Assembly (NCBI RefSeq): GCF_056746865.1
Contig: NZ_CM163382.1
Reading direction: 5' to 3' (one strand)
Length of the DNA: 64,000 nt
A program made the position numbers. Each line of letters starts with the position of its first letter. Position 1 is the stretch's first letter. Shown piece after piece: positions 37,001 to 40,000 of this stretch.

Positions 37001-40000
37001 ATTTGGATTTGAGATTGAAGGGACTGGCAAGAAGTACGCATTACGTAATGGTGAATATGTCGATGCGTATTATATGGCGCGGGTGAAGTAAGATAGTGCC
37101 CTTTTTCTGAGATGGAAAAAGGGTGTCATTCAAAATCGGCATACCTTCCTTTAAGGTATTTATTTTCCCAATAAATATATAAGATTTACCTCATAATTAC
37201 GTCCTAAAGTGTAATATTTTATTTTTTAATATATACGCCTACAATTTCCTGGAGTAAATAAATAACAATTAACAAGCATAATAGTGCCATTGATAAAATA
37301 GCATGCCATAAAAGGACTTTTCATGGATGAGTAATATTGTTTACCTGACAGTAACGGGAGAACAACAAGGAAGCATCTCCGCAGGTTGTGGGACTTCTGA
37401 GTCTACAGGTAATCGCTGGCAGAGCGGGCATGAGGATGAAATATTTACATTCTCACTCTTAAATAGTATTACTAATACGGGGCTTGGTTCACAGTTCCAT
37501 GGTATAACATTTTGTAAATTAATTGATAAAAGCACTCCATTATTTATTAATTCCATTAACAATAATGAACAATTATTTATGGAATTTGACTTCTATCGAA
37601 TAAATAGATTTGGTAGATGGGAAAAGTATTATTATATACAACTAAGAGGCGCTTTTTTATCGGCTATTCATCATCAGATCATTGAAAATCAACTGGATAC
37701 AGAAACATTAACTGTTAGTTATGAATTTATCCTCTGTCAACATCTTATCGCAAATACCGAGTTCAGCTATTTGGCACTCCCTGAAAATTATAACTGTTTG
37801 TTTTTACCAAATTCAAAAAACCAAACAAATAATCGTTTCAAAACGTTAAACAGCAAAGCTATTGGCAGGCTACTTGCTGCTGGTGGCGTATACAATGGGA
37901 ACATTGAAGGATTCAGAGATACTGCGGAAAAACTGGGTGGAGATGCAATAAAAGGCTATGATCAAATACTAAATGAAAAAACAGCGGGCATAGCGATAGC
38001 AACAGCATCTATTCTTTTAACAAAGCGTTCTAATGTTGATACATATACAGAAATAAATAGTTACTTAGGCAAACTTAGAGGTCAACAAAAACTTCTTGAT
38101 GGTATAGACATAATAGAAATAATATACATTAAGAGACCTTCAAAAGACTTAGCTAACTTACGAAAGGAGTTTAATAAAACTGTAAGAAAAAATTTTCTTA
38201 TCAAACTTGCAAAAACCTCCGAAGCATCTGAAAGATTCAACGCCGAAGACCTTTTAAGAATGAGAAAGGGCAATGTTCCTCTAAATTATAATGTTCACCA
38301 TAAACTATCTCTAGATGATGGTGGTACTAATGATTTCGAAAATTTAGTATTAATCGAAAACGAACCATATCATAAAGTTTTTACTAACATGCAATCACGA
38401 ATAGCTAAGGGAGTATTAGTAGGTAGACTGGCCCCCTGAATCTCCAGACAACCAATATCACTTAAATAAGTGATAGTCTTAATACTAGTTTTTAGACTAG
38501 TCATTGGAGAGCAGATGATTGATGTCTTAGGACCGGAGAAACGCAGACGGCGTACTACACAGGAAAAGATCGCTATTGTTCAGCAGAGTTTTGAACCGGG
38601 AATGACGGTCTCCCTTGTTGCCCGGCAACACGGTGTGGCAGCCAGCCAGTTATTTCTCTGGCGCAAGCAATACCAGGAGGGAAGTCTTACTGCTGTGGCC
38701 GCAGGAGAGCAGGTCGTTCCTGCCTCTGAACTTGCTGCTGCCATGAAGCAGATTAAAGAACTCCAGCGCCTGCTCGGCAAAAAAACGATGGAAAATGAAC
38801 TCCTTAAAGAAGCCGTTGAATACGGGCGTGCAAAAAAGTGGATAGCGCACGCGCCCTTATTGCCCGGGGATGGGGAGTAAGCTTAGTCAGCCGTTGTCTC
38901 CGGGTGTCGCGTGCGCAGTTGCACGTCATTCTCAGACGAACCGATGACTGGAAAGATGGTCGCCGCAGCCGTCACTCAGATGATACGGATGTGCTTCTCC
39001 GTATACACCATGTTATCGGAGAGCTGCCCACGTATGGTTATCGTCGGGTATGGGCGCTGCTTCGCAGACAGGCCGAACTTGATGGTATGCCTGCGATCAA
39101 TGCCAAACGTGTTTACCGGATCATGCGCCAGAATGCGCTGTTGCTTGAGCGAAAAACCGCTGTACCGCCATCGAAACGGGCACATACTGGCAAAGTGGCC
39201 GTGAAAGAAAGCAATCAACGATGGTGCTCTGACGGGTTCGAGTTCCGCTGTGATAACGGAGAAAAACTGCGAGTCACGTTCGCGCTGGACTGCTGTGACC
39301 GTGAGGCACTGCACTGGGCAGTCACTACGGGCGGCTTCGACAGTGAAACAGTACAGGACGTAATGCTGGGAGCGGTGGAACGCCGCTTCGGCAACGAGCT
39401 TCCGGCGTCTCCAGTAGAGTGGCTGACGGATAATGGTTCATGCTACCGGGCTAATGAAACACGGCAGTTTGCCCGGATGTTGGGGCTTGAACCGAAGAAC
39501 ACGGCGGTGCGGAGTCCGGAGAGTAACGGCATAGCAGAGAGCTTCGTGAAAACGATAAAGCGTGACTACATCAGTATCATGCCTAAACCAGACGGGTTAA
39601 CGGCAGCAAAGAACCTTGCAGAGGCGTTCGAGCATTATAACGAATGGCATCCGCATAGTGCACTGGGTTATCGCTCGCCACGGGAATATCTACGGCAGCG
39701 GGCCAGTAATGGGTTAAGTGATAACAGGTGTCTGGAAATATAGGGGCAAATCCAGTAGGTGAAAGCAAAATCACTCCCTGGGCCATTCCATCTGGCTCAA
39801 TTTATCCTCCCATGAAAAATATTATGGAACCCACAAAATGATGACTAAAACCCAAATAAATAAATTAAAAAAAATGATGAATGATTTAGACTATCCATTT
39901 GAAGCACCGCTCAAGGAATCATTTATTGAAAGTATAATCCAAATAGAATTTAATTCTAATTCAACTAATTGCCTGGAGAAATTATGTAATGAAGTTAGTA

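Follow-up and report, generated by a model that had tools for sequence, protein, structure and literature searches.

An IS2-interrupted allele of the Hcp-ET1-type gene yhhZ of Escherichia coli, probably a pseudogene, upstream of an intact putative immunity gene

Ma et al. 2017 (Virulence; summaries in PMC6730261 and PMC6099711) described the Hcp-ET1/ETI1 pair in STEC004, E. coli O104:H4 C227-11 and 55989, and strain 55989 is also named as a carrier elsewhere (bioRxiv 10.1101/2024.03.05.583533). Hcp-ET1 is reported in reviews to be a DNase that is delivered by T6SS2, a type VI secretion system (T6SS), and neutralised by ETI1 (PMC6730261, PMC6099711). Here the comparison was extended to a locus in a 64-kb stretch of E. 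coli DNA, referred to below as the window. The 55989 locus yhhY-tssD-yrhA-yrhD-yrhB-ggt is syntenic with the window locus, and the 55989 protein is identical to YhhZ, as reconstructed from the window, at 380/392 positions (97%), with 12 amino-acid (aa) differences. The secondary sources, together with this synteny, suggest that YhhZ is Hcp-ET1. The feature in the window is very likely an IS2-disrupted allele of yhhZ, a chromosomal E. coli “evolved Hcp” of Hcp-ET1 type, present as a pseudogene with an intact putative immunity gene. As the original prediction had stated, Hcp proteins with an extended toxin domain are a described class, and yhhZ itself was already known. The locus is an unremarkable, decayed version of a described system, in a private and probable pseudogene state, and it matters little beyond its correct annotation.

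As encoded here, the yhhZ open reading frame extends from an ATG at 37327 (MSNIVYLTVTGEQQG...) to a stop codon at 38437-38439 and specifies 370 aa, the last four codons (RLAP) and the stop being left-end sequence of IS2. When 37327-38423 and 39760-39841 are spliced together, the frame is kept and a 392-aa YhhZ results that is identical to RefSeq WP_000065916.1. Its TGA finishes at 39841, exactly the end coordinate given by the original prediction, whose proposal of an Hcp-fused HNH toxin gene at 37327-39841 was borne out for both halves of the protein and for the 392-aa frame once IS2 is removed. The native sequence 5' of IS2 ends with the second base of codon G366, and the native yhhZ stop overlaps the yrhA start codon (ATGA, 39838-39841). 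The low GC content claimed for the islet was also found, with 33% for 37092-41066 without IS2 versus 50.7% for the whole window. The gene anatomy and the boundaries of IS2 established in this analysis are given in Table 1.

Table 1. Coordinates of features at the yhhZ locus (positions in the window)
Feature	Position	Strand	Basis
yhhZ codons 1-147, Hcp/TssD domain	37327..37767	+	TIGR03344, PF05638, PDB Hcp chains
yhhZ codons 148-243, linker plus pre-toxin region with helices	37768..38055	+	Conservation, predicted helices
yhhZ codons 244-366, retained part of His-Me (HNH) nuclease domain	38056..38423	+	
Catalytic motif H324 H325 ... N339 ... H349 of yhhZ	38296-38373	+	Within retained nuclease part
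Target-site duplication GTAGG, left copy, 5 bp	38419..38423	.	
IS2, 1331 bp, transposase genes in same direction as yhhZ	38424..39754	+	Inverted repeats, length, ends, ORF models
insC of IS2	38515-38880		NCBIfam “IS2 repressor TnpA” 2.9e-83
insD of IS2	38838-39743		NCBIfam “IS2 transposase TnpB” 1.4e-213
Target-site duplication GTAGG, right copy, 5 bp	39755..39759	.	
yhhZ stranded 3' remnant: last base of codon 366, codons 367-392, stop	39760..39841	+	Reconstruction
yrhA, intact, 164 aa, putative cognate immunity gene	39838..40332	+	NCBIfam NF038335 YrhA family 2.8e-37
yrhD remnant, 41-aa ORF	40418..40543	+	Incomplete yrhD pseudogene in 118UI annotation
yrhB, orphan polymorphic-toxin immunity protein (Imm35)	40782..41066	+	PF15567 1.2e-20, concatenated query

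The N-terminus had been described as Hcp-like, and a profile search agreed: residues 1-147 of YhhZ matched NCBIfam TIGR03344 over model positions 1-161 of 167 with 118.3 bits (E 3e-34), far above the curated cutoff of 58.9. Pfam T6SS_HCP (PF05638) was matched at 3.8e-11, and the PDB Hcp chains 3he1 (Hcp3), 6a2v and 5mxn aligned over most of the domain with E values from 2.6e-12 (3he1) to 3e-10. Judged from its sequence, this region is a true Hcp/TssD domain. A full-length AF2 model, built on a shallow alignment of 14 close homologues, was poor, with a pLDDT of about 22-36 for the Hcp part (residues 1-170); it was replaced by a model of the nuclease domain alone, built from 44 diverse sequences. 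The linker is conserved with DUF8093-fused relatives from about K172/T173 (KTLNSKAIGRLLAAGG...) and has helices predicted at low to moderate confidence. A transmembrane helix in the linker was considered and rejected, its hydrophobicity being too weak (maximum Kyte-Doolittle 1.18).

The C-terminus, which had been read as an HNH/colicin-type DNase, required family-level analysis. YhhZ alone gave sub-threshold matches to Pfam HNH (PF01844), with E values of 0.013 and 0.0038; among 44 diverse relatives, 19 reached E <= 1e-3 and all 44 reached <= 0.1. In searches of the PDB, the family profile matched Cas8f-HNH at 1e-4 and, more weakly, pyocin AP41 DNase (0.022), Cas9 HNH (0.097) and Rhs2 (0.17). 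The Col-Pyo_DNase profile (PF21431) gave E values of 0.8 and 0.17 with YhhZ, and at most 3/44 relatives reached <= 0.1. The motif NYNVHHKLSLDDGGTNDFENLVLIENEPYHKVF covers residues 320-352, and H324, H325, D330, N335, N339, H349 and Q356 are invariant among the 44 relatives; these sequences all conserve the general-base His, both Asn and the metal-binding His. The AlphaFold domain model (pLDDT 94) contains a beta-beta-alpha-metal fold and resembles the DNases of pyocins and colicins as well as Cas8-HNH and the Rhs2 toxin of Serratia. YhhZ has also been placed in His-Me group 32 (Jablonska et al. 2017). Family and structure evidence together firmly identify residues from about 244 to 383 as a His-Me (HNH) nuclease domain, the C-terminal boundary at about residue 383 being set by the family-level analysis.

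The family bearing this domain comprises 642 clusters at 50% identity, and the toxin domain almost always forms the very C-terminal end of its protein, whose length ranges from 141 to 1542 aa. The N-termini fused to it are Hcp, DUF8093, Pre-toxin-TG (PT-TG) or LysM-containing; in an NCBIfam search of ten long relatives only LysM-type matches were obtained, and the DUF8093-type N-terminus of Enterobacter relatives retrieved nothing in a PDB sequence search. The DUF8093 toxin-immunity module forms an orphan cassette among housekeeping genes. A shared C-terminal toxin, unrelated N-termini and adjacent immunity genes identify the family as a polymorphic-toxin system. The module shared with DUF8093-fused proteins, along with the domain boundary, could guide the design of constructs for work on YhhZ toxicity. 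Two other readings were set aside: a defence system, as no PADLOC model matched YhhZ, YrhA or YrhB, and the description of yhhZ-yrhAB as methionine-to-cysteine conversion genes (PMC3309015), an apparent gene-name confusion with Bacillus subtilis genes.

The inserted element shows the 1331-bp length, terminal inverted repeats, 5-bp duplication and two overlapping ORFs (insC/insD) of IS2, a member of the IS3 family. The terminal inverted repeats are imperfect, with 33-nt arms that are 79% complementary, and the GTAGG direct repeats on either side are perfect. IS2 interrupts yhhZ after codon 366 and supplies RLAP and a stop (38425-38439) in place of residues 367-392. The window is collinear with E. 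coli 118UI, with 4 mismatches in 62.7 kb, and IS2 is the sole structural difference. The junction was found in 0/5,426 complete E. coli genomes, and the truncated protein had no occurrence in a collection of 15 billion proteins. The rarity of the insertion is thereby established and, given also the perfect target duplication and the intact IS2 ORFs, the insertion is a recent, private event. It lies downstream of the catalytic motif, and truncated YhhZ may have some residual activity.

Two alternative views of the nuclease were weighed. Blondel et al. called the C-terminal domain a “degenerate HNH domain” (PMC2907695), which would imply DNA binding without cleavage. The sub-threshold single-sequence Pfam HNH score (E 0.013) fits this view. 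Colicin-type H-N-H motifs have a fourth His in an H-x3-H arrangement, and this residue seems to be missing from YhhZ. Against this stand the invariance, across 44 diverse relatives, of the His acting as general base, of the two Asn and of the metal-binding His, the conserved immunity gene next door, which implies toxicity, and the report that Hcp-ET1 is a DNase, so that a degenerate domain is highly improbable. The other view accepts the nuclease and holds that the 370-aa product is still an active effector that keeps DNase activity and T6SS delivery, IS2 lying downstream of the HH...N...H core: H324, H325, N339, H349 and Q356 are upstream of the insertion, as is the complete Hcp domain, and the intact yrhA could still protect the cell. 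The stranded 3' remnant, however, codes for the last beta-strand, which is conserved, and for the motif W373/P376/G378/I380/Y381/P382. In the domain model, strand 368-376 is confidently predicted (pLDDT about 95); position 373 is aromatic in 44/44 relatives, Y381 is present in 44/44 and P382 in 39/44; and nearly all of 145 representative relatives span the lost segment and end 0-4 residues beyond the domain. The conservation of the lost segment is thus established, and a still-active product is quite unlikely. IS2 takes the conserved last beta-strand, with W373 and Y381, and does not spare the toxin domain; the truncated toxin is therefore probably non-functional and yhhZ here probably a pseudogene.

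A further alternative concerns delivery. Blondel et al. 2009 (PMC2907695) were the first to suggest an “evolved Hcp” that acts independently of a T6SS, and on this account the locus would be truly stand-alone and YhhZ would serve a cellular or bacteriocin-like function unconnected with T6SS firing. Their statement is in line with the retention of the gene in K-12, which is reported to lack a T6SS (PMC6730261), and with the occurrence, as an orphan among housekeeping genes, of the same toxin-immunity module behind an N-terminus (DUF8093) other than Hcp. The absence of T6SS structural genes from the 64-kb window, as originally claimed, points the same way: no core gene occurs in the collinear 118UI annotation (malP...zntA), in which yhhZ, as tssD, is the sole T6SS-labelled gene. 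The orphan status claimed for the locus thus holds within the window. It applies to the locus alone: the closest relative, 118UI, carries a complete T6SS at another site, tRNA-Asp, with tssA, B, C, E, F, G, H, J, K and M, icmH (DotU/TssL-like), tagH and two hcp genes, one of whose Hcp products is 38% identical to the Hcp domain of YhhZ. A T6SS is accordingly available in the lineage, and its presence in this genome may be expected from the near-identical 118UI. T6SS-independence is also opposed by the Hcp domain score far above the curated TssD cutoff, by reviews reporting Hcp-ET1 delivery as T6SS2-dependent and by the absence of a PADLOC defence-model match, and it is very unlikely.

Downstream of yhhZ, YrhA is identical to its 118UI counterpart, and in Enterobacter a 62%-identical YrhA homologue follows the same toxin module. 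The yrhD ORF is a remnant of a gene whose full-length product in 55989 has 51 aa, and yrhB is, from its profile match, predicted to be a second, orphan immunity gene (Imm35). The IS2 insertion might have been a switch to an “immune non-producer”, in which the toxin is killed and yrhA (with yrhB) is expressed through IS2 read-through or from its outward-facing right end; we regard this as a tentative and rather unlikely proposal. No convincing fusion promoter was present in the sequence at the IS2 right end, and neither promoter-like sites (12 vs 11.6 expected from shuffled sequence) nor terminator-like sites (2 vs 3.8 expected) were in excess. Independent insertion-sequence events have occurred in the same islet, namely IS1 in yrhA (K-12), several IS elements (L37) and an IS1-linked deletion (N9). 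If the proposal were true, the strain would resist kin firing intact YhhZ, free of the cost of the toxin, and the repeated IS events would mark the locus as one on which selection for the balance of effector and immunity has acted again and again.

Under the preferred reading of a disrupted Hcp-ET1-type effector gene, intact yhhZ encodes an Hcp tube domain (1-147) that a linker of helices joins to a C-terminal toxin, a His-Me/HNH DNase (about 244-383), and its translation is coupled to that of yrhA. The Hcp domain would be incorporated into, or added onto, the tube of a T6SS presumably encoded elsewhere in the genome, and the fused nuclease would be fired into neighbouring bacteria, where it would degrade their DNA; YrhA would shield the producer and its kin. 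Here a recent IS2 transposition after codon 366 has retained the HH...N...H catalytic motif, swapped the last roughly 17 residues of the nuclease fold for RLAP-stop and uncoupled yhhZ from yrhA, leaving a most likely non-functional truncated toxin with the Hcp domain and yrhA intact. The annotation that fits here is an IS2-interrupted yhhZ (Hcp-ET1-type) pseudogene with an intact yrhA and an orphan Imm35 yrhB, and neither “tssD” nor an active effector. The locus offers a clean case of insertion sequences eroding orphan T6SS effector-immunity islets in E. coli.

Compared with known systems, the reconstructed YhhZ shares with Hcp-ET1/ETI1 the combination of Hcp and a C-terminal HNH DNase in one polypeptide, an immunity gene immediately downstream and the same orphan position; unlike Hcp-ET1 of 55989, its reading frame is not intact, being interrupted by IS2 after codon 366. 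E. coli K-12 yhhZ-yrhA (b3442/b3443) is the same gene and locus, with about 97% protein identity (11 differences between reconstructed YhhZ and the K-12-like L37 allele), but the damage is reversed: K-12 has an intact toxin gene and an IS1 in yrhA, whereas here yhhZ carries IS2 and yrhA is intact. The colicin E7/E9 and pyocin S2/AP41 DNases, which ranked highest in Foldseek (probability 1.0, TM to target 0.41-0.45), share the beta-beta-alpha-metal (His-Me) core and the pairing of a bacteriocin-type toxin with a small adjacent immunity protein, putatively YrhA in this case. The likeness is structural only, as YhhZ belongs to a separate sequence family (Pfam Col-Pyo_DNase E 0.17-0.8) and has a different scaffold, with an N-terminal three-stranded sheet and a C-terminal strand; YrhA showed no detectable relationship to Im7/Im9 in the searches run, and delivery would be by Hcp fusion, whereas colicins and pyocins use receptor and translocation domains. 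The Serratia marcescens Rhs2-CT HNH toxin (PDB 9t38/8cm0), whose aligned core is only 20% identical, has an Rhs cage and not Hcp as its carrier. Usp/Hcp-ET3-4 of uropathogenic E. coli is likewise an Hcp-fused nuclease, a bacteriocin-like effector encoded with immunity genes, but differs from YhhZ in its pyocin S3 and colicin-DNase toxin domains, its three immunity genes and its locus.

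The yhhZ gene, labelled tssD in RefSeq, is interrupted in this genome by a copy of IS2 whose terminal inverted repeats are imperfect (33-nt arms, 79% complementary) and whose two ORFs match NCBIfam "IS2 repressor TnpA" (2.9e-83) and "IS2 transposase TnpB" (1.4e-213). The final four codons and stop of the truncated yhhZ ORF are IS2 sequence. Once the element and one repeat copy were removed, 37327-38423 and 39760-39841 fused in frame to give a 392 aa protein identical to WP_000065916.1 from the near-identical relative E. coli 118UI. The TGA of the reconstructed gene ends at 39841, the end coordinate of the original prediction, and overlaps the ATG of yrhA, the putative immunity gene.

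Coordinates of yhhZ, its IS2 insertion and other features of the window
Feature	Position	Strand	Remarks
Fimbrial operon	about 11920-19114	-	seven genes, chaperone-usher
RyhB small RNA gene	36387-36451	-	Rfam RF00057, 83 bits, E 3.4e-15
yhhZ truncated ORF	ATG 37327, stop 38437-38439	+	370 codons, begins MSNIVYLTVTGEQQG
Helical region, YhhZ residues 173-235	37843-38031		KTLNSKAIGRLLAAGGVYNGNIEGFR...AGIAIATASILL
IS2	38424-39754		1331 bp
IS2 flanking direct repeats	38419-38423 and 39755-39759		GTAGG, 5 bp, perfect
Native yhhZ stop/yrhA start	39838-39841		ATGA
yrhD	40418-40543	+	41 codons here, a shortened form typical of this lineage (51 in E. coli 55989)
yrhB	40782-41066	+	Pfam Imm35, 1.2e-20
livK, livJ	52495-53510 and 54611-55620		75.6% identical; ordinary paralogous binding-protein genes

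By profile and sequence matching, the N-terminal domain of YhhZ is an Hcp domain, as originally predicted. Specifically, NCBIfam TIGR03344 (TssD) matched residues 1-147 with 118 bits, above the cutoff of 58.9 (E 3e-34), Pfam T6SS_HCP matched at 3.8e-11, and the solved Hcp chains 3he1, 6a2v and 5mxn aligned at 2.6e-12 to 3e-10. Evidence for the proposed HNH/colicin-type C-terminus was weak from the single sequence (Pfam HNH, E 0.013; Col-Pyo_DNase, E 0.8) and the domain was therefore assessed at the family level. An exhaustive search placed it in 642 clusters (50% identity) at E <= 0.001, 412 of them at <= 1e-10; in almost all it forms the extreme C-terminus (0-4 residues following) of host proteins of 141 to 1542 aa, with alignments stopping around YhhZ residue 383. 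Across 44 diverse members aligned together, R279, F282, G315, P318, H324, H325, D330, N335, N339, L340, L342, H349, Q356 and Y381 were invariant, and Pfam HNH matched 44/44 members at E <= 0.1 and 19/44 at <= 1e-3. Against the PDB, the family profile matched Cas8f-HNH (1e-4) and the pyocin AP41 DNase (0.022), with weaker matches to a group II intron maturase, Cas9 HNH, pyocin S2 and Serratia Rhs2. AlphaFold modelled residues 236-392 confidently (pLDDT 94, pTM 0.87), and Foldseek, queried with a lower-confidence full-length model, returned the pyocin S2/AP41 and colicin E7/E9 DNases at probability 1.0, the top structural matches all being His-Me nucleases. The C-terminal domain is thus a His-Me (HNH) nuclease, with H324, H325, N339 and H349 among its invariant residues, and the original prediction held overall in both observation and interpretation. 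This agrees with the literature: Blondel et al. 2009 (PMC2907695) classed YhhZ as an "evolved Hcp" whose HNH domain is degenerate, and Jablonska et al. 2017 (PMC5714182) took it as the type of His-Me group 32.

The sequence is E. coli chromosome, collinear with 118UI (4 mismatches in 62.7 kb), IS2 being the sole structural difference over the compared stretch. By the 118UI RefSeq annotation, the order to the left of yhhZ is malP, malT, rtcBA, rtcR, glpR-G-E-D, the fimbrial operon, glgPACXB, asd, gntUKR, yhhW, yhhX and yhhY, followed from yhhZ on by tssD (yhhZ itself), yrhA, yrhD', yrhB, ggt, ugp, liv, rpoH and ftsYEX ... zntA. GC content falls to 33% in the islet between yhhY and ggt (37092-41066, IS2 left out) vs 50.7% window-wide. 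RyhB lies just upstream, between yhhX and yhhY, its known location. The glpD-glgP fimbrial region, located by 118UI collinearity, is a second variable islet, E. coli 55989 carrying there a different four-gene insert that includes a PstS-family protein. No T6SS core genes were annotated in the collinear 118UI stretch, so "orphan" describes yhhZ within the window but not within the lineage, since 118UI has a full T6SS cluster adjoining tRNA-Asp (tssB, C, E, F, G, tagH, tssJ, K, icmH (DotU/TssL-like), tssH, vasI, tssA and tssM, with two hcp genes and a vgrG pseudogene). One Hcp of this cluster shares 38% identity with the YhhZ Hcp domain (E 2e-31). The 118UI T6SS may itself be impaired, as its vgrG is annotated as a truncated pseudogene (locus L011, 37559-39460) with ISAs1 fragments and a group II intron downstream.

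In its domain architecture and gene neighborhood, YhhZ behaves like a polymorphic toxin paired with a putative immunity gene. The linker and toxin module (from about residue 173) is also fused to another N-terminal domain, DUF8093 (PF26362; no match in a PDB sequence search), in Enterobacter, Leclercia, Pantoea, Serratia and Erwinia. This form is likewise a two-gene orphan cassette, with a downstream gene product 62% identical to YrhA (E 1e-72); in Enterobacter and metagenome contigs (loci L005-L008, 9001-10663) the cassettes sit among housekeeping genes, sometimes with an adjoining integrase. A Pre-toxin-TG domain or LysM repeats occur in more distant relatives. The helical region is common to the Hcp- and DUF8093-fused forms and missing from the more distant relatives; its hydrophobicity falls short of that of a transmembrane helix, and a role as a pre-toxin or translocation segment is possible. 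YrhA matched the NCBIfam YrhA family (2.8e-37), and YrhB is, from its Pfam match, an orphan polymorphic-toxin immunity protein. No toxin partner adjoins yrhB, so that the islet holds two immunity genes and one toxin. PADLOC defence models gave no match for YhhZ, YrhA or YrhB. The 118UI annotation lists yrhD as an incomplete pseudogene.

The insertion follows yhhZ codon 366, keeping the catalytic motif H324-H349 and placing RLAP where residues 367-392 would be. The segment cut off is not a dispensable tail, because it is modelled as a beta-strand (368-376, pLDDT about 95), its residues are conserved among the 44 members (aromatic at 373, 44/44; P374, 41/44; G378, 37/44; I/V380, 42/44; Y381, 44/44; P382, 39/44) and nearly all of 145 representative relatives run through it. 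From sequence and model, this makes loss of function of the truncated protein likely. IS2 also uncouples yrhA from yhhZ, to which it is linked by ATGA in the intact locus. An outward -35 at IS3-family right ends can build fusion promoters (PMC9330008); no convincing -10 partner was found at this insertion, and a published assay detected no promoter activity from the IS2 right end alone (PMC12095673).

The insertion is private: its junction with yhhZ occurred in 0/5,426 complete E. coli genomes, and the truncated protein was not found in a 15-billion-protein collection. IS elements appear to have targeted this AT-rich islet repeatedly: K-12 strains have IS1 in yrhA, L37 (L002) has IS1 and IS3-family elements in yrhA, and N9 (L012) has an IS1 and has lost yhhZ together with most of yrhA. 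The events in K-12, L37 and N9 are independent.

Hcp-ET1, reported in STEC004, O104:H4 C227-11 and 55989, is described as degrading target-cell DNA after delivery by T6SS2 and as being neutralised by the downstream ETI1 (PMC6730261, PMC6099711, bioRxiv 10.1101/2024.03.05.583533). The 55989 locus has the same order (yhhY-tssD-yrhA-yrhD-yrhB-ggt), its protein being identical to reconstructed YhhZ at 380/392 positions; this synteny and identity, with the secondary literature, argue strongly that YhhZ is orthologous to Hcp-ET1. The yhhZ-yrhA pair is present in 3,812 of the 5,426 genomes, always chromosomal and almost always single-copy. The Hcp-HNH toxin system is already described and the protein sequence of this allele already in RefSeq; only the private IS2 insertion is new, and it most likely inactivates the toxin while leaving the immunity gene intact.
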